Shown: piece after piece, positions 18,004 through 31,358 of the stretch
How the letters are laid out: each line of letters opens with the position of its first letter
Position numbering within the stretch: the stretch's first letter is position 1
Origin: Archaeoglobus fulgidus DSM 4304
Lineage (GTDB): Archaea; Halobacteriota; Archaeoglobi; Archaeoglobales; Archaeoglobaceae
Length of the DNA: 32,000 nucleotides
Direction: 5' to 3'
NCBI RefSeq assembly: GCF_000008665.1
Contig: NC_000917.1
Coordinates: forward strand, 2,070,001-2,102,000
Program-made: the position numbers and the translations under genes
Notes under the pieces: generated by a model
Told to the model about the DNA's origin: nothing
Databases searched by the model: none
What the model saw: the letters and a program-made list of their open reading frames with translations, nothing else

Positions 18004-18076
18004 GGGCTCGTGGTCTAGGGGTCATGACGTCGCCTTGACGAGGCGAAGGTCGCCCGTTCGAATCGGGCCGAGCCCA
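18004..18076 (+). tRNA. tRNA-Val (anticodon GAC at 18037-18039), no encoded CCA
   Basis: I folded it by hand. The acceptor stem is GGGCTCG/CGAGCCC and the D stem is GTC/GAC. The anticodon stem is TCGCC/GGCGA with loop TTGACGA. The T stem is GCCCG/CGGGC with loop TTCGAAT, and the discriminator is A. Total length is 73 nt. Confidence 0.9.
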
Positions 18077-18089
18077 CTAAATTCTTAAA

Positions 18090-18100
18090 TTTTTAATTTT
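18090..18100 (+). terminator. Oligo-T tract (TTTTTAATTTT) downstream of tRNA-Val; likely archaeal termination signal
   Basis: T5 and T4 runs begin 14 nt after the tRNA 3' end. Archaeal RNA polymerase terminates at oligo-T. Confidence 0.35.
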
Positions 18101-18263
18101 GCTGCCTGTTCAGCTCTAAAAAAGCTCAATAATTTGTTTAAGGCTTCTGAAAAGTCATTTTTGGGTTTTTCTTCGAATAAGATGATTCAGATTTTGTTCC
18201 AGATCGTTCCAAGTGGAACATAGCGGAGGAAAGTTTCGTGATGAGCAAAGACTCACTCAGAGA

Positions 18264-19175
18264 TCAGCCTCCAAAGATATCTCTAATCACATCCTCCCAG
18301 AATTCAGGATCTTCAGCGGCGATTCTATCGTTTTCCTCCCACTCCCTGAGCATGAATTCTTTCATGAACTCGTCTATCGTTTTTACCTCTATCCCTTGCT
18401 CTCTGGCCCACTTCATGGCATCCTCCGATAGATCATCTTCGTAATCCATAATTATGCGTAAGTTTTTCCTTATCCTCTTCGTTACACTCTCCAGCTCTTC
18501 CTTGGAGATGCTGTCTGAATCATCCTCGTAATCTGGCTTTACCAGCAGAAACTTCTCCTTCTTCCCATTCTTGGTGGCGTCAACTACTGAGAACTTCCCC
18601 TTTCTGGCTGACTTCACAACCTTATAATCCATCCTCTCCAGATACTTCGAAAAGACCTCCTCAAACTCTTCTATGGAGCTGAAATCGTAGCTTTCGCTGG
18701 AGACGTAAAAGTAAAGCTTCTTTTTGAAGTACACGCTTTCTACGATAGACCTTCCAAAGTCAGTAAACCATCCATTCTCTACCCACTCGCTAAGAAAATC
18801 CTCTCTAATCCTGTACCTATCGTAGTATTCAATCTCTCCCCCATCAGCACGCTCTATTATCATCATCTCGTTAAATTCGAACCCGCTGAGCATTATTGAG
18901 TTGAAATCTTTATGGCTGTCAACACAAATTTTTGGGGTTGTACTCTCTTTTCCAAATGTAAAAACGTACTTTCTTGCTGGTAGCCTATCAGGGATGAAGT
19001 ATTCAGGTTCCTCATTTTCAAAAAAGTGCTTGGAAACGTGTATCTGACAAAGTTCACCATCTTTGGAGTAGTACGCAGCTGCTGGCAACGTATCGTTCAA
19101 AAACTTGTCAACAAAGTACGGAAAATCCTCTCTTATGAATATTTTCAGTATGGAGTCTTCTTTTTTCAGCCTCAT
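18264..19175 (-). CDS. Hypothetical protein (303 aa), first gene of the island; the C-terminal half may have a nuclease-like fold
   Basis: It is a long, clean ORF with island-like AT-rich codon usage. The segment YKVVKSARKGKFSVVDATKNGKKEKFLLVKPDY loosely fits a D...(E/L)xK nuclease core. The C-terminus is highly acidic. No family is recognised. Confidence 0.5.
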   Translation of the reverse strand: MRLKKEDSILKIFIREDFPYFVDKFLNDTLPAAAYYSKDGELCQIHVSKHFFENEEPEYFIPDRLPARKYVFTFGKESTTPKICVDSHKDFNSIMLSGFEFNEMMIIERADGGEIEYYDRYRIREDFLSEWVENGWFTDFGRSIVESVYFKKKLYFYVSSESYDFSSIEEFEEVFSKYLERMDYKVVKSARKGKFSVVDATKNGKKEKFLLVKPDYEDDSDSISKEELESVTKRIRKNLRIIMDYEDDLSEDAMKWAREQGIEVKTIDEFMKEFMLREWEENDRIAAEDPEFWEDVIRDIFGG

Positions 19176-19514: not shown

Positions 19515-22500
19515 ATGGTTACAGGTGAAGTTCCATCACTCAAAAAAGCAATTCTTGAAAGCAAGATTGTATTCGATGATGAACTTGTGAGGATTGCATC
19601 AGATCCTAACGCAAATGTGAATGATGCGATTTTTGAGGTAGAGTTCTCAAATTTCCTGAGTGGAAATGCCCATCCTGACTATCTCGATCCTGCGAGGTTT
19701 TACAAGAAAACGCATTTCACAGAGGATGCGAAAAACATTTTGAAGAGAGTTTTATCGAGGGTTACATACGATTCTGATGAATCCTATGCAATTATCCTCG
19801 ATACAACCTTTGGTGGAGGTAAAACACATACACTCATTGGAATCTACCATCTTTTCAAAAACAGGGATGTGGCAATAAACTTCCACGAGATAAAGCAGAT
19901 TCTCAAGGATCTCGGAATTCCAGCAATTCCAGATGTTGAAATTGTTGCAATTGACGGCCACAATATCGATCCAGATGAGAATCTCTGGAATGTGATTGGC
20001 AGACAGCTTGGTGACGAAACACTTGCCTCCAGAAAATCCCCTCCAACCGCTCAGGAGATAGAAAATGCAATAAGAAAGGTTGGAAAACCTGTAGTATTCC
20101 TGATTGATGAGCTTGTGATTTACATTTCAAAAATACTTGATAGCGAAGCAAGAATTGCCCAGAATAAGGGTTTCATTCACTCACTTTTTGTTGCAACTGA
20201 GGCAACCAAAACATCCATTGTAATTCTTACAATTCCAGAAAGCGAAGCTTACAAGAAGGAATCCGAAATTCTAAGAGATATAACGGCCATTGCTGAAAGA
20301 GGAGCAACCAAAATCGCACCTGTTGCAAAAGAGGATATAATCCGAATACTGAAAAAGAGATTTGTAAAGGAAGTGGATGAAAAATACGCAAGGGCTGCAG
20401 CAAAAGCTTTAACGACCTTTACGCAACAAAACTCGGTATTGGCGAGGCTGTTAGTGAGGAAAGGCTGTTTGAGTGCTACCCATTTAACCCAGAACTTGTG
20501 GAGGAGATATTTTTTGGCAGAATAGGCATGTACGAGGATTTCCAGAGAACGAGAGGTATACTCCAGATAATGGCGAGAGTTATTGTAAATCTGCTAAGAC
20601 ATGCAGAGGAGATTCCTGAAACCACGATGTTCATTTCTGCTGGAGAGATTGATCTCTCATATCCTGAGCTAATGAGAAAGCTTACAGATCGCATATTCGG
20701 GGCGAACTTGATCAGGTTGTTCAAATAGATATAGCAACTGCTGAGGGAACTGCCCATGCTCAGAAAGCGGATGGAAAAATAAGATTTGGAAACTTTGTGA
20801 GAATCGCAACTGCTGTTTATCTTTACTCCCTTTATCCAGACGAATCCAAGAAGGGTGCCAACAGCAGGCAGATATTCAGGGCTTTGGGCGATGAAAGTCT
20901 TGATCCTTCAACAATAGATGCATATCTTGAGAGACTCTACGATGAGATTGCAACCCACATTTTCAGAGCTGAGGGGACAGACAGGTATTACTTCAAAACT
21001 GAGGAAAATCCGAGAGCCCTCGTTAGGTATGCGGCAAAGGATGTTAAGGATGAGGAGGTCAAGCTACATCTGCAAAAACAGCTGGTTGGGAAAATAATAC
21101 CCTCAACGGATGTTGTTGCCGTAAATATCTTCGAGAAAGAGATTAAGAGAGATAATACGGATCCAGGAAAGCTCAACCTCTTTGTGATTGATTACGAGGA
21201 AGTGTTCAGAATTTATGCTCACCTTAAAAGATCGAAGGAGTATGAGAGTGAGGCTGAAGATGTAGTTGCCAGGGAAGCCTTCAGCAGAATTTTCTCCCAA
21301 ATGCTATCAATTACTGCTCCAAACAGAAATTCGGTTGTACTTCTCTTCCCAGTTGCAGGGGGAATTCCCTCATTCATGAGTGATGTGAAGGAGCTGATTG
21401 CTTGCGAGAAACTCAAGAAGGAGAGATCGAAAGATAAGGAGTTCCTCAAGGAGCTAAAAGCAATTCAGGAAAGAATCTATGCCAAGACCGCTCAGAAATT
21501 GATAAACCTCTACTCCTATGCAGGATTTTTCCGAAAGAACGATCAGGTGATAGGGCAACTCTCGCCGCTAACCTACGATGAGAAGGCGAAATACACTGAA
21601 AGGATTTTCGAGGAGCTTGAAAGGAAATGGGGGAAGGTTCTGAGTTCTGCAAGTGAGGATTACATTTACGGAGTTATGGGCAAGGAAAAAGACTACATAA
21701 AACTCTCAGAGCTTATAAACACGATAGCAAACTCAACAGGTTATCCGTTTGTTCCTGCAAAATATCTGAAGGGGAGCATTAAGGAACTGGTAAAGGCTGG
21801 AGAAATTGCAGTATACAGGGGGGAGATATGCGATCCTGAAGAGGTTGACCTCAGGAAAAGTGAAGAAATCGTCAAGAGTCTGAAACTTGGTATTGAGCTT
21901 GGCGAGATAAGGGATTCAGACTATGTTGTTAAGAAGGAGTTTGCTGAAGAGCTTTTAGGGGCTGCAAAGAGGAAGAGAGCAGATGAAGCTGCTAACAGAA
22001 TTCTTGAGGTTCTTGGAGATAGAAATTACGCTGAAATCTCCTCCATCGAGTCTGAACTCCCAGATCTGAGCAGAAAAGATATTGTGGATGCTGTTAAGAG
22101 ATCCCAGAGGCTTGAACTTTATGGCGGGGATATTTCACTGATCAGGAAAGTTGAGGAGGGGGCTGAGCTAAGCGAAAGCGAGAAGGAAGAAATTCTATCT
22201 GGATTTAATGCTGAACATGGTGAATTCATTTTCAAAAAGGAGTATGCTGAGGGGATCAAAAATAAGATCAGAACTGTTGAGTGGGAACCTCCTGAAATTT
22301 CAGAGGATGAAGAGAGGAAAGGTGAAGAGATTAAGGTAAGCGACCTCATAGAAAGATTTGAGGATTTTGAAGGCAGGAGGGTGAAGAGAATCAAGGTAAA
22401 AGGAAGCGGATCGAATAGCCTTAAAGAGGATGCTCTTAATTTGGGAGGAGCAGTACCGTTCCTCAACTTAAAAGGTAAAATTGCAGTTGATTTGAAAGGC

Positions 22501-22698
22501 AGGGTATTTTTCAAATGCTCATCAGAGCTTGAAAAGGCAGGCATAATTGAAGAAATACTGAGGAAAATAGCAGAGCTTGACAGCAATCCAGAATATTCTG
22601 TTGAGCTTGAAATTGATGCAGAGGTTAATGATGATTTCAGAATATTTGCAGAGCAACTTACTTCAACAAAATCTGAGAAAACACTCGTGGTGGAATAA
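19515..22698 (+). pseudogene. DUF499-like P-loop ATPase (about 1050 aa if repaired); the frame is interrupted twice (pseudogene or homopolymer sequencing error)
   Basis: The fragments are 19515-20525, 20498-20728 and 20797-22698. Walker A FGGGKTHT lies at 19812-19826 and Walker B FLIDEL has its DE at 20106-20111. The DUF499-typical YPFNPELVE...FQRTRGILQIMARV follows in the second frame. Adding 1 nt in the A4 run (20402-20405) and 1 nt in the G4 run (20699-20702) joins the pieces. Confidence 0.75.
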
Positions 22699-23009
22699 TG
22701 CTCGCCATAAAAAATACCGTTTACGAGGTTGTTGAAACTCCAAAGTACATTACGATGTACGAGAGCTACCAGAACAGGGAGAAAAGCTACAGGATGAAAA
22801 TAGCCTCCGCTACTGGATGGAGAAAAGATGCGATAAAGAATTTGATGAAGAAGCTCAAAATTCAGGAGAAAACAGATGATGTTGAGAAGGCAATGAGAAT
22901 TTACGTGGCAATCAAGGTTCTGAATTCGATGAAGAGGGCTGAGCAGAGATACAAGCTGGTGGATACCGTTCTCAATCTCCCACCTGAAGAAGTGTTTTTC
23001 TGGGCGTAG
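22698..23009 (+). CDS. Small hypothetical protein (103 aa), start overlapping the ATPase stop (TAATG)
   Basis: The ORF appears translationally coupled to the ATPase gene. Its TAG stop at 23007-23009 is followed by 19 more in-frame sense codons up to a TAA at 23067-23069, so it may be truncated. No family is recognised. Confidence 0.45.
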
Positions 23010-23065
23010 AAGCTCTCATCCACGAAGAATGGAGCTTATGCGTTCAGGGTTCTTTACGGGCTGAT

Positions 23066-23332
23066 TTAATCGTAAACCTTTCCTCTTCTTTCAACTTTTA
23101 AGATGTGAACCGTTTTGGTTGGCTTATCGAGAAAGTAAATCACTCTGAAATCTCCAATTCTGATACGGTAAGTGTTCTCCTCGCCTTCAATCTTTTTAAC
23201 ATCGAATCTTTTCCAAGGAATTGGATCTGTTTTGAGCGTTTCCAGAAGTACACCAAATTTCTTTAAATGAGCTTTTTTAAGACGTTTCAGCTCTTGAGTT
23301 GCTTTCCTGTGAACTACAACCCTAAACACCAA
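23066..23332 (-). CDS. relE: RelE/ParE-family type II toxin (archaeal RelE type)
   Basis: The 88-aa sequence has ...YRIRIGDFRVIYFLDKPTKTVHILKVERRGKVY, the characteristic RelE C-terminal core. Confidence 0.85.
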   Translation of the reverse strand: MVFRVVVHRKATQELKRLKKAHLKKFGVLLETLKTDPIPWKRFDVKKIEGEENTYRIRIGDFRVIYFLDKPTKTVHILKVERRGKVYD

Positions 23333-23519
23333 GCTCCCTCTTCAGCTCATCCCAGTCAACGTGTTCTCCTTTTAACGACTCTTCTTTCAGCTTTCTGATT
23401 TCCAGAAGCTCCTCCTCAGAAACTTTTTCTGCCGGTATTATAAGTTCCTCAAGCTGCTCAATTTTTTCCCTTATCTTCTTAACCTCGCTGTAAATCTCCC
23501 GCAGGAGTGCTTCGTTCAT
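23322..23519 (-). CDS. relB: RelB-like antitoxin (65 aa) cognate to RelE
   Basis: The gene lies immediately upstream of relE with an 11-nt overlap. It is small, helical and acidic (EELLEIRKLKEESLKGEHVDWDELKREL), like archaeal RelB. Confidence 0.65.
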   Translation of the reverse strand: MNEALLREIYSEVKKIREKIEQLEELIIPAEKVSEEELLEIRKLKEESLKGEHVDWDELKRELGV

Positions 23520-23533
23520 GGTTTCACCAGTCT

Positions 23534-23590
23534 TTATTTGGCTTTGAGAAGATAAATAATTTGCTTCGATTCAGATTTAAAGCCAAATAA
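23534..23590. promoter_or_regulatory. Perfect 12-bp inverted repeat (TTATTTGGCTTT ... AAAGCCAAATAA, 33-bp spacer) spanning the predicted relBE promoter; candidate operator
   Basis: The arms are at 23534-23545 and 23579-23590. On the minus strand, TATA-like GCTTTAAATC and AATTATTTATC elements lie at or between the arms, upstream of the antitoxin ATG at 23519. Confidence 0.35.
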
Positions 23591-23629
23591 TTTTTTAAGT
23601 TAAAAGCCCATATTAAACAGGTGCTGGAT

Positions 23630-23770
23630 ATGGGTGAGATAACGATAAGAGCGAGAATTCCCAAGGAGCTTGAAGGCTCTGAAGGTGTGCTCAAAACAGA
23701 GAACTCATGGGAGGAGCTTGAGGCTGAAATGCATGAAGATGTTTTTGGACATCTTTATCGAGCATTTTAA
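23630..23770 (+). CDS. Possible 46-aa ORF ([19 protein letters not shown]...), perhaps an orphan antitoxin-like fragment
   Basis: This ATG-to-TAA ORF is below the track threshold. Its N-terminus vaguely resembles ribbon-helix-helix or AbrB-type antitoxin starts. The evidence is weak. Confidence 0.2.
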
Positions 23771-23817
23771 AGGATTGCACTCATTTCAGATGTTGAAAAC
23801 CTGAGATAGGTGGTGCA

Positions 23818-26422
23818 ATGAAGTTGCTGATTGAAGAGTTCATTCCCGTTGAAGAAATAAGTGAGGAAGCGAAGAAAGAAAAGCTCGGAAATGCCAAACC
23901 CCCTATCTTCTCCCTCCACTACTGGTGGGCGAGAAAGCCGTTGATTACTGCAAGGGCTGCGGTTCTTGGAGCTTTAATCTCAAAGGAGAATTTACCGATG
24001 ATAGTTGGTAATGGGGATTTAAAAACCAATTTACTGCGCATTCTGAGAATACCCAAAGATATCAACGAAGGGCCAAGGGCCCACACACAGGATCCTCCAG
24101 CCGAATACTTGAAGGAGGCAATAATCAAAACGTGGGGTGAAATTCCCACAGTTCTCGATCCTTTCGCAGGTGGAGGTTCGATTCCCTTCGAGGCTTTGAG
24201 GTTAGGCTGTAACGCTGTTGCTGTGGATTACAATCCCGTCGCATATTTAATTTTAAAAGAAACCCTTGAATATCCGAAAAAGTATGGAATGAAGCTAATA
24301 CTATGATGTTAAGAAGTATGCTGAGCAGATATTCAGAGAGCTGAAAGAAGAGCTCGGCAGATTTTATCCAAAACATGATGAAAAGGATGTCGCTGCATAC
24401 ATTTTTTCATGGGTGGTTAAATGCCCCCAGTGCGGATTTGAAACGCCTTTAGTTGGTTCATGGCAGCTTGCCAAAACGAAGAGAGGTAAAGAGGTTTATC
24501 TTGCCTATGAGGTTGAAGGAGACGAGCTGAAGCTTGAGATAAAGGAAGGTATGGCTCCAGAAGGAAATGTATCGAGAGGGGATGGAGTTTGTTTGAAATG
24601 TGGAGCTCACATTCCCAATGATGAGGTTGTGAAGCAGATAAGGGAGAATGAGAAAGAGAGGATGCTTGCAGTTGCTCTGCTAAACTCAGGAAGGGGGGGG
24701 GAAGGAATACGATGTGCCTTCTGATGAGGATTTGAAAGCATTTGAGGAGGCTGAAAAGGAGCTTAAAAAGAGCTGGTTCAGGTTTTATCGTGAGGGGTTG
24801 ATTCCTGATGGAGAGATGCCGAGAGACTACAGGTTTACGCTTTATTTGCCAAAGCATTATCAGCTTTTCAACCCAAGGCAGTTGCTTTTGATGGTAAAAT
24901 TTGCTGAAAAGGCAAAAAGAATTGTTAATGAAATTGCTGAGAGAGATGAGGAGTATGCAAAGGCGATGGGTGTTTATCTCTCGGCAATTATTGCAAAGCA
25001 TGTTGACAGAAACTGTAGAGGTACTACATGGGATTCTGGTTATGAAGTAATCTCCTCAATGTTTGGAAAAAGGAGACCTTCGATGATGTGGGATCATACT
25101 GAAGTTAATCCGTTCGTAAAATCCTCTGGCACCCTCATAAACAACATAAACGACGTTCTCAACGCCCTTAAATACTCCATCGAAAAACTCTCCTCCACAC
25201 AAGCCACAATCGAAATCATAAACGAATCCACAGCCTCATGGAAACCTCAAAGAAAGTTCAAAATCATAGTCACCGATCCCCCCTACTACGATGATACCCC
25301 CTATGGCGAGGTTAGCGAGGTTTTCTACATCTGGCATAAACGAATTGTGGGGCATCTTTTCGAGAAGGAATCCAAATACTTCAGAAACGATAGGGTTGAA
25401 ACATCCGAGGAACTCGATGTTGGGGGAAATAGAGATAAGGAGTTCTTCAACAACCTTTTCATAAAAACGATGCAGAACGTTCACGATTTACTTGATGATG
25501 ATGGTATCCTTGTTCTCTTCTTTGCCCACAAAAGCCCTGAAGCGTGGTATTTCGTTCTCGAAGCTTTAAGACAGGCAGGCTTCAACATCACAGCAACGTT
25601 TCCCATCCACACAGAAAGCACGGAAAGCGTTGTTGCAAGGGGCAAGAAATCAATCTACCATAGCCTGATCATAACCGCAAGAAAGAGAAAGGAAGAAAAA
25701 ACGGGGATCATAGAAGAAATACTCCCAGAAATCGAAGAAAAAATTTACCAGAGAGCTGATGAGCTGGAAAAATACGGTTTGAAAGGCTCTGATCTCCTTG
25801 TCGCTGCGATGGGAGTGGCTTTAGAAGTTCTCACATCCTACTCTGAAATAAAGAGCTATTCTGGGAAGATAACAGCGAAGAGTGCTATCGAAATAGCTCA
25901 AACAGTTATGGCCAGATACATAACAAGAAAAATGATTGGGGAGGAGGCGGATCCTGTAACCACCTTCTACATTTACTCCCGCCTGAACGGCATGGATACG
26001 ATGGATTACGATACTGCCAATAGTTCATCAAAAGCTTGGGGCTTAAGGAAGAAGATCTCGAAAAGAGCGGTTTGATAAAGATCGTGAAAAGCAGGAGTAG
26101 GAAAAGTGTTATCCTGCAGGATTATTATAGAGGTGATTCCAACATCGAGGTTGCGGGTTACGATACTATCAGGGGCAATAGCCTGATTGATTACATCCAC
26201 AAAGCCCTGAGAGCTTACGATATTGAGGGAATGAAGGGGTTTGATAGAGTTAGGAGCGAGATTCCCTACTCAATGAAAGCTGTAATTGGAGTTCTGCAGG
26301 CTCTCGCAAGGATAAGGCTCGATCCCTCAAGGAAGAATGATAGGGAGGCTAATAGAGCGGCAGAGATACTTGAACACCTCAGAATGCTGGATGAGAAGCT
26401 CGAAAGGTGGGGAGTAAAATGA
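23818..26422 (+). pseudogene. DUF1156-like DNA methyltransferase with an internal Zn-ribbon and a DPPY catalytic motif (about 865 aa if repaired); the frame is interrupted three times
   Basis: The fragments are 23818-24306, 24413-24724, 24714-26075 and 26036-22. The N-terminal LHYWWARKPL is DUF1156-like. SAM motif I DPFAGGGS is at 24157-24180. The Zn ribbon is CPQC at 24422-24433 plus CLKC at 24590-24601. Motif IV DPPY is at 25275-25286. The breaks are at about 24296-24304, in the G9 run at 24693-24701, and at about 26019-26024. Confidence 0.8.
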
Positions 26423-26870
26423 CATACTGGGTTTTCAGCTCTAACTCTCTGGAGAACATTGAGATCGGATACAGAAACATGATTTGGGGATTCTGGGATA
26501 GGGATGCAGGGGAAAAGCAGAAAAAGAACTGGAGAAGCTTTATCAGAAAATACAACCAGATAAAGCCCTTCGATGTTGCAGTATTTCAAATTGCAAAACT
26601 GGAGAGATAAACGCCATCGGAGTTATTAAAGAAACGTATTACGACGACCAAACTCCTGTTTGGGAGAATGAATTCAGTCATAGCAGAGTTACTTATCCAT
26701 GGAGAGTGCATTTTTCAGCCATGATCTTCTCCAGAGAACCAGTAGTTAAGAAGTATATCAGGATACAGGATTATCTGGACGGTTACGGTATTGGTGAACT
26801 CGAACCTCACGATTTCAACGTCATCATAGATGCATTTCGCCAGAAATTTGGTGAGATTTCGGTGAGGTGA
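26407..26870 (+). pseudogene. EVE/PUA-like small protein (about 154 aa if repaired); one frameshift in an A4 run
   Basis: MTYWVFSS...MIWGFWDR...FDVAVFQIAK continues in the -1 frame as TGEINAIGVIKETYYDDQTPVW...YPWRVHF...EPV. This resembles the EVE-domain layout YW...W...GD.v.fY...g.i.aig.v...yD..., as I remember it. The start overlaps the methyltransferase end. The break is at 26595-26598. Confidence 0.45.
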
Positions 26871-26874
26871 TAAC

Positions 26875-29800
26875 ATGCTTTACCCGCTTTTCAGAGTGGC
26901 AGTAGATTCATACCATCTCTTCACAAAATACCAGTATGATCCTGTAAGCGTTCTTGCAGCCTCCAAAATTAATCTTCTCCCATACCAGCTTGAGGATTTT
27001 CTCAATCTGCTGGATATAGCCGATAGCGGAAGGCCTGTCAGGGTGCTTATAGCCTACGAAACTGGATTGGGTAAAACGATTCTCGCAGGGCTTTTCATAA
27101 AGGAAATGGTAATCAGAAATCCAAATACAAGAATACTGATCGTAACCCCTCCAAATGTTCAGTATCAGTGGCAGGATGAGCTGAAAAATAAATTTGGCAT
27201 GCATGTTCCCCTGCTTACGGAAGCTGATAAACAGGGCAAGGATCCTCTAAAACAGAAGTGGCTCATAGCCTCAATGGATACGCTGAAGGGGGAGAACTGG
27301 CTCAGGAGAGTTGAAGATCACAGATGGGACATCGTTGTTGTTGATGAACTCCATAGAGCCACCATTAAAAACAGAAGAGCCCAGCTGATTCAGGTTCTGA
27401 GGGATAGAACCAAACACATGCTGGCTTTAACCGCAACTCCCCACGACGGGAAGGAGGATCAGTTCGTTTTTCGCCTCAGCCTGATTAACAGGAACGTTGA
27501 TGAGCAAAACTGGAAGGAGTTCGTAAAGAAATACACCTTCAGGAGGAGAAAAAGGGACGTTCTCGATCTCGAAGGAAGGAAAATATTCCCGCAGAAAGTG
27601 TATCCTCTAACAATAGAGATAGAGCCAGATGAGGAGGAGAAGGAATTCTACTGGGAGGTTGAGAAATACGTAAGGAGCTACTACAAGCTGGCTGAGGAGG
27701 AGAATAAAAGATCAATAGGGCTTGTTGCGACCATTGTTGGCAGGGCTGTTTCTTCAAGCATAAACGCTGGAGTTCAGGTTCTCAAAAACAGGTACAGAAG
27801 GTTATTTGAGGGGTTTGCGGAGGAGCTCGAAGATGCTGAAGACATTCTCGACGAATTAAAGCAGGCTGAGGAAGAGGGCGATGATGAGAAACTTGAAAAG
27901 CTAAGAATGAAAATCATAGAATCCGTTCCTGTCAGGAAGGATCTCGTTGAAAAGGAGAAGGAAGTTCTTGAAAGGTTGATAACCCTCGGAGAGAAATTGC
28001 TTGAGAGAGGGAGGGATAAAAAAACCGAGAGGCTTGTTCAGGTTGTAAATGAGCATATGGAGAAGGGTAACAAAGTTATAATTTTTACACAGTTTCTGGC
28101 AACGCTCGATCACCTTGAGAGAACCTTCAAAGAGATTTATGGCGAGAATAGTGTTGTTACTGTACATGGCGGGCTAACGCATGAAGAGAAGAAAAACAGA
28201 ATTGCCAAATTGTGGGATAGCGCAAAAATCCTGATTGCAACAGATGCTGCTGGAGAGAGCCTCAACCTGCAGGCTGCAAACGTAGTAATTCATTACGAAA
28301 TCCCCTGGAATCCCGTTGTTTACATCCAGAGAGTGGGGAGGGTTTACAGATACGGGCAGGAAAAGGACATCTACATTCAGAGTATGCTTCCAGTTTTCAA
28401 GATTGAAAGGAGGGTTCTCGAAGTTATTCTCCAGAAGGTTGAAACCATTGAGAAGGATTTCGATATTGGCAGTGTTGAGATCATTGGCACGATAATATCC
28501 GAAAGGGACATTGAGAACGAAATCTGGAGGGCTTACGTTGAGGATAGAATTGAAGATGCTGGAGAAGAGGTTTCCAAGAAATTCGATAAGGGCAAATCGG
28601 TTCTCCAGAAAATAAGGCTGGTTCTTGAGAAGGCTGAGGCTGCGAAGAAACACGTTAGGGCTGAAAAGCTGCTTGAGGATAGGGGGATTGTTGAAATCAT
28701 CACCGAAGAGGATCTCAGGAAGTATCTGTTCTACTTTGGTGAGGCAAAGTTGGGTGAGGGAAAGTTCTACGATGAGTTTACATTCTTTGAAATAAAGGAT
28801 GTCAGAATCCATCCCGAAAAGATTCTTACCGAGATTAAACCGTCAAAGGCCGAAATTCTCGATCTAAAAGATGTAACCACCCTTAGCGAAAAGGAGCTGA
28901 AGCTTGACAACCCAGCGATAAGAAAGGCCCTTTATATAGGAATGTGCCAGAGGGGAGAGGCGATTTTTAGTGGTAATGAGGAGGGATATGGAGAGATCAG
29001 GCTGCTGAAACTCTTTGATTTCTACGGTGAGCCAATATACGAGATTCCAGTGGTGGTTTTCAACGGATCTATTAAGCCTTTCAGATTTCTGCAAACCCTT
29101 GAACCCGTTATACTCTCGGACGAGATTGAAAAGGAACTTACAGCTGATCTGGAGAGCAAAGAAATAGAAATTCGTGATTCATCTTATATTAGCGAAGTAA
29201 AGGAAGAACAGAGGCTGTATCTCAAGGAAAGAGTAAACAAAGTTCTCGATGCGCTTTCAATTGAGGAAGAGTACTACAAGAGGTTTCTATCAGACGAGCA
29301 GGCAAAGAAGAAGCTTCAGGAAATTCAGGAAATGAAGAAAAAAGAGTACAGGCGATCGTTGAGAATCCATGATAGGCTTTCTGAGCCCATTGCAAAATTC
29401 TGGGTGCTGAAACCAGAGAAACTAACTGAAATGCTCCACAAAATTGCAGAAAAAACTGATGATGGCCAACTGCTGAAGGAAATAGAGAGCTCAATCGAGG
29501 ATTTTGATCCCGAATTATGGAAAAGGAAGCGAGAGGTTGAGCTTGCTGGCATGAAACTCGTGATGAGCTGTGAGGAGAAGTGGGGCAGATTTCCCAAGGA
29601 TGTATCTGCAGACGGAAGAGGATACGATATTGAGAGTTTTGATCCAAATTCGGGAGAGAAGAGGAGAATAGAGGTGAAATCCTTCAAAACGAGCCAATTG
29701 AAGTAACTTTAACAGAGAACGAGTACAAAGCTGCTAAATTCTACGGGGAAAAATACTACCTCTACATCGTAAAGAGGGTTTTTGAGGCTGGTTGCTCGGA

Positions 29801-29891
29801 AATAGAGATAATTCAAGATCCAGCAAACAAACTCCCCTTTGAAATCGAGTGGAGGCCTTACTACGTATGGCGTTACGGAAACTATATTTAA
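26875..29891 (+). pseudogene. SNF2-family helicase fused to a C-terminal DUF3883-like PD-(D/E)xK nuclease domain; the nuclease domain is split by one frameshift
   Basis: Motif I GLGKT is at 27064-27078, motif II DELH at 27343-27354, then motif III TATP. Motif VI QRVGRVYRYGQ is at 28326-28358. The C-terminal GRGYDIES (D at 29626) ...RIEVK (29668-29679) continues after the A4 run at 29686-29689 in the -1 frame. That continuation reads NEPIEVTLTENEYKAAKFYGEKYYLYIV... and runs to the TAA at 29889-29891. Confidence 0.8.
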
Positions 29892-29925
29892 AATATGAAG
29901 ATTTAATTTTGCTGGAGGTGTTGAG

Positions 29926-30345
29926 ATGTCCAAAATTGTGGGTGTAACCTATCCTATCCCCAAGCGATTCATGGACCGCTTTTTCAAGAAAGGAAAGGAT
30001 GTTTTCGTAAAGCCAGCAACCGTCTGGAAGGAGCTAAAACCGGGAATGAAGTTCGTTTTCTATCAGTCACACGAAGATACTGGTTTTGTTGGTGAGGCAA
30101 GGATAAAGAGAGTTGTGCTGTCAGAAAACCCAATGCAGTTCTTTGAAACGTTTGGAGATCGAGTTTTTCTCACAAAGGATGAGCTTAAAGAGTACATGAA
30201 GTCGCAGGAAAGGTGGGGAAGAAGAAGAGAAAGCAAAAAGAAAAAGCTCTGGATGGCCATAGAGCTTGAAGACGTCAAGAAATACGATAAACCAATCAAG
30301 CCAAAGAGGCTCGTGCCAGTTGGAGGGCAGTATCTCAGAGAATGA
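29926..30345 (+). CDS. ASCH/PUA-like small protein (139 aa), tentative
   Basis: The pattern GMKFVFYQSHEDTGFVGEARIKRVV ... LWMAIELEDVKKYDKPI resembles the ASCH/EVE-superfamily beta-barrel layout. GGAGGTG precedes the ATG. Confidence 0.4.
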   Translation: MSKIVGVTYPIPKRFMDRFFKKGKDVFVKPATVWKELKPGMKFVFYQSHEDTGFVGEARIKRVVLSENPMQFFETFGDRVFLTKDELKEYMKSQERWGRRRESKKKKLWMAIELEDVKKYDKPIKPKRLVPVGGQYLRE

Positions 30346-31048
30346 CCTCAACTTTCTTCAAATACTCTGTATTGCTACTTCCCGCTTTGATAAACTTAGC
30401 CGCTTTCTTGACCAACTTCCAAACTAATACTCTACCAGTCGAACCCATCAACCTCTATCTTTCAAATTTTGTGCACTCAGATTTCTATCACCTTACAGGT
30501 AACATAGTTGTATATATTGTCTCTGCTTTCCTCTCATTTATCTTCTTTAGGAATTCGGATATGAAAGGGTTTTCTGGATATCTTTTACCCTCATATTCAT
30601 TTTTGTACCATATCTGACTTCAATTTCCACAATTTATTTCTTAAATCGGTCTTCAATAGGTTTCTCCGGAGTTGTTTCAGCTTTTATCGGGCTGTATGCT
30701 TTTACAATTGTAATATTTCTAACTAAACACTCTGCGAACAGCGCAGTAAGCTTCTTGTTTGTTTTAATCATTGGTGCTGGTGTTATCTCTCTAACTTACA
30801 GGGATTTCGTTTTTGGGGCATTATCAGTATCATTTGCAGTATTGATTGCACCAATATTGATGAGAAAGGTTGAATTTGACAGAAAAGAGTTAATACAGTT
30901 AATATTGCTGATAGCTTTGTATATATTCTTTATGATTGGGATATTCCCACAGCAACTTGTTATTGGCAGGAATTTCGTAAACATTTTAGGCCACTACTTA
31001 GGATTCTTTGCAGGTTACATGATTCCATGGCTGTTGCGTAGATGGTGA
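30342..31048 (+). pseudogene. Rhomboid-family intramembrane serine protease-like membrane protein; one frameshift
   Basis: The fragments are 30342-30617 and about 30551-31048 in the -1 frame. The motifs FVHSDFYHLTGN (HxxxxHxxxN), GFSGVVSAF (GxSG catalytic Ser) and ILGHYLGFFAG (His) are all present. One added nt in the GGGTTTT run (30567-30573) rejoins the pieces. Confidence 0.5.
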
Positions 31049-31052
31049 TAAA

Positions 31053-31358
31053 ATGAGAATAGTATTCGTCTGCTCTCCCTTTCAGGGCAAAGCGGAAAAC
31101 ATCGAGAAAGCCAAGGAGTACTGCCGATTTGTCCTTGAGAAAGGCTGCATTCCCTTAGCCCCACACATCTACTTCAGCCAGTTTATGGATGACAACAATC
31201 CAGAGGAGAGAAGAAAGGCTCTGGAGATGAACAAAAGGCTGATGGAGTTCTGCGATGAGCTGTGGATTTTTGGAGAAGAAATAACGGAAGGAATGAAGGA
31301 GGAGATAGAGCACTTCAGGAAAATTATGGGAGAAAGCAGAATAAGGAAGATAGTTTAA
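31053..31358 (+). CDS. Small protein resembling the nucleoside 2-deoxyribosyltransferase-fold family (DUF4406-like) common on phages and mobile elements; tentative
   Basis: The pattern VFVCSPFQG...N...A..YC......G..PLAPHIYF...DD..PEER...L......CDELWIFGEEITEGMKEEI matches this family as I remember it. It is not verified. Confidence 0.35.
   Translation: MRIVFVCSPFQGKAENIEKAKEYCRFVLEKGCIPLAPHIYFSQFMDDNNPEERRKALEMNKRLMEFCDELWIFGEEITEGMKEEIEHFRKIMGESRIRKIV

Follow-up and report, generated by a model that had tools for sequence, protein, structure and literature searches.

A decayed Hma-type, BREX-related defence cassette at a tRNA-Val island of Archaeoglobus fulgidus DSM 4304

We analysed a stretch of 32,000 nt of the Archaeoglobus fulgidus DSM 4304 genome (hereafter the window) and found that the genes on its plus strand between positions 19515 and 30345 very probably form a decayed Hma system, also classed as a Type-1 BREX-related (BR) system, carried by an integrative island, about 17 kb long, inserted at a tRNA-Val gene. 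The locus is a copy of an already named system, not a new one. As encoded in DSM 4304 it cannot work, because hmaC, hmaB, a small reader gene and hmaA are all frameshifted and a DUF7680-like gene is truncated by an amber codon. An earlier reading made from the letters alone (the original prediction) had proposed here an uncharacterised restriction-modification (R-M)-like module; as the module matches the Hma system, that novelty is lost.

Payne et al. (2021) put forward Hma as a helicase-methylase-ATPase system and counted 1638 loci in 26 phyla (PMC8565338). Bell et al. (2020) had described in diverse archaea an operon of COG1743, DUF499 and SWI2-SNF2-nuclease genes with a standalone EVE protein, and proposed an R-M-like, toxin-antitoxin-like logic for it (PMC7641849). 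Liu et al. (2024) reported that HmaA of Halomonas meridiana suffices to protect E. coli against T4, and that this defence requires its NOV_C domain, a Mn-dependent nickase (PMC11232893). Payne et al. (2024) found that 62.7% of Hma loci harbour embedded genes, of which many serve defence and 96.7% are co-oriented (bioRxiv 10.1101/2024.01.29.577857). Rakesh and Krishnan (2026) gave the group the new name "DUF499-centered BREX-related systems" (PMC12839542). The view that the DUF499/DUF1156/helicase triad had been flagged only computationally, with no established mechanism, is therefore outdated (PMC8565338, PMC7641849, PMC12839542; for the experiment with HmaA and T4, PMC11232893).

Results

Identity of the cassette

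Pfam searches found DUF499, DUF1156 with N6_N4_Mtase, SNF2/Helicase_C/NOV_C (NOV_C being the former DUF3883) and DUF365. They confirmed the assignments DUF499, DUF1156, SNF2 and DUF3883-like of the original prediction, and every motif it had named was present where it had been placed. HmaC carries GGGKTH (Walker A) at 19812, FLIDEL (Walker B) at 20097-20114, YPFNPE at 20477 and FQRTRG at 20540. HmaB carries LHYWWARKPL at 23914, DPFAGGG at 24157, a four-cysteine zinc ribbon made of CPQCG (24422) and CLKCG (24590), and DPPYY at 25275. HmaA carries the SNF2 motifs, and its nuclease motif GYDIES...IEVKSF (D...EVK) lies at 29620-29685.

The best PADLOC matches of two of the large proteins were to Hma models. 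Repaired HmaC matched HmaC (PDLC00662) at 4.4e-54 and Pfam DUF499 at 8.8e-25, the profile matches spanning only about residues 38-770. HmaA matched HmaA (PDLC00659) at 1.2e-83 with the window ORF (open reading frame) and at 1e-88 with an intact allele. Repaired HmaB also gave an Hma match (PDLC00661, 2.5e-74), with the generic MTase_II model slightly higher (2.9e-83), and matched Pfam DUF1156 at 1.3e-15 as well as N6_N4_Mtase. A sequence-based search returned no relatives of solved structure for HmaC or HmaB. As in the PADLOC Hma layout, hmaC, hmaB and hmaA each occur once and all on the plus strand. Three genes and one further call of a 46-aa ORF are embedded between hmaC and hmaB, and one gene between hmaB and hmaA. 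Stop and start codons overlap at the junction of hmaC with the 103-aa ORF (TAATG) and of hmaB with the EVE-like ORF (ATGA), and the gene preceding hmaA ends 4 nt upstream of it. Exact matches of the encoded proteins to A. fulgidus DSM 4304 entries (AF_2337 to about AF_2351) identify the source of the window. The features and lesions are listed in Table 1.

Table 1. Features of the island within the window and lesions of the Hma cassette
Feature	Position	Strand	Basis or change
tRNA-Val(GAC), integration site and left border of the island	18004..18077	+	ARAGORN
AF_2337, 303 aa, NCBI name "restriction endonuclease"	18264..19175	-	weak Pfam Mrr_cat, E 0.0032
hmaC pseudogene, DUF499 ORC/Cdc6-like AAA+ ATPase, 1061 aa repaired	19515..22698	+	PADLOC HmaC, Pfam DUF499
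hmaC lesion 1	about 20411	+	1-nt deletion
hmaC lesion 2	20706	+	lost G
AF_2341, divergent DUF7680-like small protein, truncated to 103 aa	22698..23069	+	weak DUF7680, position, tblastn links
AF_2341 lesion	23007-23009	+	TGG to TAG, W104 amber
RelE/ParE-family toxin, embedded	23066..23332	-	Pfam ParE_toxin 1.3e-08
AF_2343, putative antitoxin, 65 aa	23322..23519	-	position and overlap with RelE/ParE gene
hmaB pseudogene, DUF1156 N6-adenine DNA methyltransferase, 867 aa repaired	23818..26422	+	PADLOC HmaB, Pfam
hmaB lesion 1	about 24297	+	inserted A (+1)
hmaB lesion 2	24693-24701	+	poly-G tract, G9 in window
hmaB lesion 3	about 26020	+	1-nt deletion
EVE/YTH-like small reader gene, 150 aa repaired	26419..26870	+	predicted fold
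Reader gene lesion	26595-26598	+	A5 to A4
hmaA, SNF2 helicase with C-terminal NOV_C/DUF3883 PD-(D/E)XK nuclease	26875..29891	+	PADLOC HmaA; AAB91314.1
hmaA lesion	29682-29685	+	A5 to A4
DUF365 protein, intact	29926..30345	+	Pfam DUF365 5.3e-47

Lesions of the four main genes and of AF_2341

According to the ORF list and the three-frame translation, none of the four main genes (hmaC, hmaB, the reader gene and hmaA) is an intact ORF. The original prediction left this disruption unstated and took the locus for a working module; it is pseudogenised at eight positions. We mapped the lesions by tblastn with the intact proteins of L010, a related Archaeoglobi contig located through the repaired 150-aa reader sequence, and by nucleotide alignment to three intact loci (L010, L015, L016). 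The L010 proteins aligned to the window at 72-90% identity, with a frame switch at seven places and one stop codon read through in the 103-aa ORF. This amounts to seven frameshifts and one amber codon: two lesions in hmaC, one in AF_2341, three in hmaB, one in the reader gene and one in hmaA. In the window hmaC is split into pieces of 336, 76 and 633 aa (tblastn frames 3, 2 and 1), hmaB into pieces of 162, 103, 453 and 128 aa (frames 1, 2, 3 and 2), and the reader gene into two. The hmaA ORF ends at 29706, 62 codons early (943 aa vs 1005 aa intact); its nuclease domain is cut after EVK and covers profile positions 2-52 of 91, and the intact allele (P0002) matches NOV_C at 5.8e-18. Conceptual repair gives open, full-length HmaC of 1061 aa, HmaB of 867 aa, reader of 150 aa and HmaA of 1005 aa. 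The 2024 survey of Hma loci was curated to hold no pseudogenes, a rule under which this locus would be left out.

We further found the island in eight environmental assemblies from different projects (an NCBI metagenome-assembled genome, ENA oil-field metagenomes, Logan runs and a JGI metagenome). Wherever these include Hma genes, their identity to the window is >99.9%, and they differ from it at only three indel sites. At 20706, L002 has an extra G that fuses the second and third pieces of hmaC; at 24693-24701 the poly-G tract is G9 in the window, G10 in L004 and G8, in frame, in L008; and at 29685 all eight environmental assemblies have an extra A, giving intact HmaA of 1005 aa. The five other lesions are common to the assemblies wherever covered. 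In addition, the JGI contig L001 is 100% identical to the window over 23183-30672 (7.49 kb), including the A deletion in hmaA. Lesions that are shared by independent assemblies are real mutations and not sequencing errors. Within hmaC, L002 has 10 substitutions relative to the window, all in about 230 bp (21204-21435), and no others in the surrounding 12 kb. The cluster resembles a patch introduced by recombination into a variable portion of the ATPase.

It could still be argued that the frameshifts stem from faulty sequencing or assembly, or that programmed recoding overcomes them, and that the system is functional as encoded. The reference genome is a 1997 Sanger assembly, and several lesions do lie in short homopolymers (A4 at 26595 and 29682, G9 at 24693). 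However, five lesions are identical in eight assemblies made by different projects on different platforms, L001 agrees exactly over 7.49 kb, one lesion is an amber codon and others lie outside homopolymers, and the intact orthologs are single ORFs. We know of no precedent for seven independent recoding sites in four genes, which also counts against recoding. We therefore regard a functional system of this kind as very unlikely. An idea that was tried and dropped is that four of the seven frameshifts are A5 to A4 changes in a shared CAAAA(G/C) context, hinting at slippage or recoding. The ortholog alignment leaves only two such sites, in the EVE-like gene and hmaA; the other two, in hmaC and hmaB, lie a few bases from where they were initially placed, in non-homopolymer sequence.

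The poly-G tract of hmaB invites a further reading, namely that it is a phase-variation switch turning methylation on and off, and the occurrence of G8, G9 and G10 in otherwise identical sequences fits such a switch. Yet hmaB has two further fixed frameshifts (about 24297 and about 26020), so that the G8 allele is still without full-length HmaB. Furthermore, intact orthologs have no homopolymer at this site (GGAAAGGG or similar): the G9 tract arose in the A. fulgidus lineage from a GGAAAGGG-type sequence, and slippage in a dead gene explains its variation. A working switch is thus barely credible.

In the environmental relatives only hmaA, the toxin-antitoxin pair and the DUF365 gene are intact. 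This raises the alternative that the locus is a partly working remnant, in which HmaA serves wild A. fulgidus as a stand-alone defence gene and only DSM 4304 has lost HmaA too. In its favour, HmaA is intact in 8/8 environmental assemblies and frameshifted only in the window and L001, HmaA of H. meridiana by itself is enough to guard E. coli against T4, and hmaB or hmaC is missing from about 15-20% of hmaA loci (PMC11232893). On the other hand, the populations are near-clonal, with 0-1 substitutions per 7-9 kb, and the intact hmaA may simply not have been hit so far. We consider a stand-alone role unlikely, though not negligibly so; it complements, rather than replaces, the reading of the locus as a decayed Hma system.

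Intact orthologous loci

L010 carries an uninterrupted cassette with the same order of seven genes as the window, each encoded by a single ORF: HmaC (1051 aa), a 123-aa protein, a ParE toxin and a 65-aa antitoxin (both on the minus strand), HmaB (869 aa), a 150-aa protein and HmaA (1011 aa). The order of the hma genes is the same in L010, L015, L016, L017 and L018. Conserved neighbourhood was also found much more widely. A scan with an HmaC alignment, restricted to one genome per species, gave 35 loci in archaea and bacteria; in all 23 of the fetched loci with enough flanking sequence, the genes for a DUF1156 methyltransferase and an SNF2 helicase stand beside the DUF499 gene. The order is ATPase-methyltransferase-helicase or, in Chloroflexi, the reverse.

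The DUF7680 gene after hmaC

The original prediction had listed a tightly coupled 103-aa ORF. The ORF is present and overlaps the stop codon of hmaC; it is probably a truncated, divergent member of the DUF7680 family (AF_2341), with intact orthologs of 123-124 aa. In the Archaeoglobi the resemblance is distant: 7/11 members of the AF_2341 family match DUF7680 weakly, the best at E 0.0027, below the 24-bit gathering threshold (PF24728). Matches are moderate (1e-5 to 1e-8) for the small proteins of methanogens and Ignavibacteria, and strong (1e-34 to 1e-38) in haloarchaeal, Eremiobacterota and proteobacterial loci whose helicases are of the N-terminal PLD type. By tblastn the Archaeoglobi family links (3e-11, 7e-08) to methanogen homologues, two of them above threshold and a third at 23.6 bits, and a profile search returned >3600 proteins, the best 120 of which all carry PF24728.

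A small gene of DUF7680 type directly follows the DUF499 gene in every ATPase-first locus fetched, and was undetected in the fetched Chloroflexi loci. These small proteins share an invariant EE..W motif near the C-terminus; the amber codon of AF_2341 lies just past it, and the last helix is lost. The best AlphaFold2 (AF2) model for the family, confident in 1/5 models, begins with three to four strands and continues with five helices, and a structure search with it gave no resemblance in PDB or BFVD. Literature searches found no paper mentioning DUF7680. We tentatively propose, at clearly less than even odds, that DUF7680 is an unrecognised fourth core subunit partnering the DUF499 ATPase in loci with either NOV_C or PLD helicases, and that the Archaeoglobi and methanogen clade is an intermediate variant with a TUDOR-less helicase and, in some members, a standalone EVE/YTH-like reader of m6A type that would read modified bases in trans.

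The EVE/YTH-like reader

The repaired reader has 93 full-length homologues, including MJ_1369 of M. jannaschii. Its AF2 model (pLDDT 91) gave as top Foldseek matches the EVE-type proteins PH1033 (1wmm; 4e-06, TM 0.59) and MJECL36 (2p5d; 9.5e-06, TM 0.64), both with moderate TM-scores, followed by the m6A readers YTHDF2 and YTHDC1, many YTH domains and the modification-dependent endonuclease VcaM4I. Pfam EVE (PF01878) did not match the window reader, and matched 3/41 family members weakly (best E 0.0019). On the predicted model, the reader is a PUA-like barrel of EVE/YTH-like fold.

In the window, L010, L015 and L017 the reader gene separates hmaB from hmaA, and it is absent from L016 and L018 to L022; the MJ_1369 homologue stands alone in M. 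jannaschii. In a WOR-3 bacterium (L013:9001-9453) a close homologue separates hsdS from hsdR in a type I R-M operon and overlaps both genes, a placement which indicates that the reader moves between different restriction systems. The reader family is accessory to Hma.

Toxin-antitoxin slot, DUF365 and other neighbours

Between the 103-aa ORF and hmaB, a RelE/ParE toxin and antitoxin pair occupies the minus strand (23066-23519), which the original prediction had missed. The toxin has an ortholog in the same place and orientation in L010, and AF_2343 is 86% identical to its L010 ortholog and matched no family in Pfam or PADLOC. The slot before hmaB varies in content: RelE/ParE in the window and L010, MazE-PIN in L015, and a 65-aa protein with a PIN protein in L016. 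Such a variable toxin-antitoxin slot fits the idea of an embedding hotspot. No PADLOC model matched RelE, the antitoxin, AF_2337 or the DUF7680 proteins, the Hma-embedded candidates included in the case of RelE.

The "ASCH-like" ORF of the original prediction belongs to Pfam DUF365. Its EVE match is weak (0.002), as is that to the PADLOC candidate PDC-M11B (5.7e-06), and a PUA-like fold is plausible. It is the exact protein of PDB 2KKU, deposited as an "uncharacterized protein". DUF365 genes lie near Hma in L016, L017, L018 and L048 and are absent from L010; DUF365 is a recurrent neighbour of this Hma clade, not a core gene. In L016 the DUF365 gene directly follows a gene for a HicB-like antitoxin.

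AF_2337 opens the island, with the tRNA on one side and hmaC on the other, and is intact; its weak Mrr_cat match is at the C-terminus. L010 has no equivalent upstream of HmaC, and AF_2337 is outside the Hma cassette. Beyond DUF365, two adjacent membrane-protein ORFs in different frames (30342-30617 and 30755-31048, the second matching the C-terminal two thirds of Rhomboid at E 3.6e-05) may be another split island gene, and a DUF7768 protein (31053-31358) is further island cargo. Past the end of the window, L002:14801-16256 encodes a Pfam EVE protein of 147 aa followed by a transglutaminase-like protein. The island thus holds two or possibly three PUA-like reader genes: that of the 150-aa protein, that of the EVE protein and possibly DUF365.

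The island and its att sites

GC content is about 0.48-0.53 before the tRNA-Val gene and 0.38-0.45 downstream of it. A direct repeat of about 190 bp (18027-18218) comprises the last 51 nt of the tRNA and about 140 nt more. No second copy was found inside the window; the right copy was located beyond it through L002 (L002:17382-17573), about 17 kb downstream, where it adjoins the gene for a 356-aa protein that weakly matches tyrosine recombinases. The tRNA-Val gene, the GC drop, the att repeat and the recombinase-like gene together indicate that the Hma cassette is carried by an integrative element, which extends past the right edge of the window. Rfam gave nothing in the window.

Two side observations concern the att repeat. 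On an oil-field contig (L004:11527-13328) the recombinase ORF runs through an attL-type copy into AF_2337 as one ORF of 423 aa; the element may have been present there as an excised circle or in tandem, or the assembly may have been routed through the repeat. L002-type strains also differ from DSM 4304 by two reciprocal G/C swap pairs (18052, 18055, 18065 and 18068) within the 3' portion of tRNA-Val. The swaps look like compensatory T-stem changes, and their position exactly inside the repeat suggests that the 3' end of tRNA-Val was replaced by different element copies.

Discussion

The likeness to Hma lies in the same three co-oriented proteins, an SNF2 helicase with a NOV_C domain of D...EVK type, and embedded genes. 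The locus departs from described Hma loci in that all three hma genes are pseudogenes and the embedded toxin-antitoxin pair runs in the opposite direction to them. In the scheme of Rakesh and Krishnan, Type-1 is defined by a helicase with a C-terminal PD-(D/E)XK domain, Type-2 by an N-terminal HKD helicase with DUF3780, and Type-3 by PglZ with iSTAND (PMC12839542). The A. fulgidus locus shares with Type-1 the DUF499 ATPase, the DUF1156 N6-methyltransferase with a zinc-finger insert and the Swi2/Snf2 helicase with C-terminal PD-(D/E)XK. It differs in having a DUF7680 gene after DUF499, where Type-1 is described with three genes, a standalone EVE/YTH-like gene immediately upstream of the helicase, and apparently no room for a TUDOR domain. 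For Type-1, DUF499 is also described with a C-terminal RRM/ferredoxin-like domain; the profile matches of HmaC end at about residue 770.

With Type-2 it shares the order ATPase, small alpha+beta protein, methyltransferase, helicase, and a helicase lacking TUDOR; in the Type-2-like PLD-helicase loci that we fetched from haloarchaea and bacteria, the small protein is DUF7680, the family to which AF_2341 probably belongs. Unlike Type-2, HmaA here has a C-terminal NOV_C and no N-terminal HKD/PLD. PADLOC found no PLD or PbeA-type N-terminal match in HmaA, such as is present in the haloarchaeal and Eremiobacterota helicases, and no Pfam DUF3780 match was found in the locus, the slot between ATPase and methyltransferase being filled by the DUF7680-like gene. 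The NCBIfam "anti-phage-associated" models for DUF499, DUF1156 and phospholipase-D proteins gave scores far under their equivalog cut-offs (134 vs 1200 and 260 vs 1000). From the archaeal operon of Bell et al. (2020), which also has a standalone EVE-type reader beside the helicase-nuclease, the locus shows no difference in kind; its reader, which scores under the Pfam EVE threshold and was recognised by predicted fold, is frameshifted. Towards Type-3 BREX and class 1 DISARM, HmaA scores strongly against BrxHI/BrxHII and DrmD, HmaB weakly against PglXI, and DUF499 is BrxC-like. Among the island ORFs scanned there was no PglZ, BrxA, BrxB/BrxF, DrmA, DrmB (DUF1998) or DrmC, and no classical type I-III R-M component (HsdS/HsdR, Res/Mod or a paired type II endonuclease).

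Several points weigh against parts of the reading as a decayed Type-1 BR system with R-M-like logic. The ResIII/SNF2 match of HmaA starts at residues 30-32, with positions 1-76 of the PADLOC HmaA profile unmatched, so the predicted protein appears to leave no room for the N-terminal TUDOR domain of Type-1 helicases. Phage grown with HmaB were not protected from HmaA (PMC11232893), contrary to a model of self/non-self discrimination by methylation. The relative-rate count (window, L010 and outgroup) gave no excess and no clear acceleration of amino-acid change on the A. fulgidus branch, and fragments of the genes may retain residual function. The same count makes the decay look recent but gives no actual date.

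The mechanism outlined here for an intact system draws on the literature and on the domains. HmaB would methylate adenines of host DNA as a self mark. HmaC, as an ORC/Cdc6-like AAA+ protein with DNA-binding modules, would assemble on DNA and scan it, probably with its DUF7680 partner, and HmaA would translocate and nick unmarked invader DNA. The EVE/YTH-like protein may read a modified base, which could be the self mark m6A or one made by a phage, and the toxin-antitoxin pair is probably an independent embedded cassette. The R-M-like logic of the original prediction agrees in this respect with published hypotheses. The sole experimental study so far took hmaA and hmaB separately and saw no R-M-like behaviour (PMC11232893). 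Our literature searches returned no A. fulgidus methylome and no paper on these AF_ locus tags.

The value of the locus as a discovery is small, because the system, its name, its association with EVE and its kinship with BREX have all been published. If the proposal on DUF7680 is true, this family links the "Type-1" and "Type-2" architectures. The DUF7680 gene deserves inclusion when Hma or BR systems are cloned. The intact cassette of the L010 type is a clean candidate for testing Hma in archaea. For A. fulgidus itself, a model archaeon, the locus documents how a defence island decayed step by step: none of the populations that we found retains a functional methyltransferase or ATPase gene, and only the type strain has lost the nuclease gene as well.

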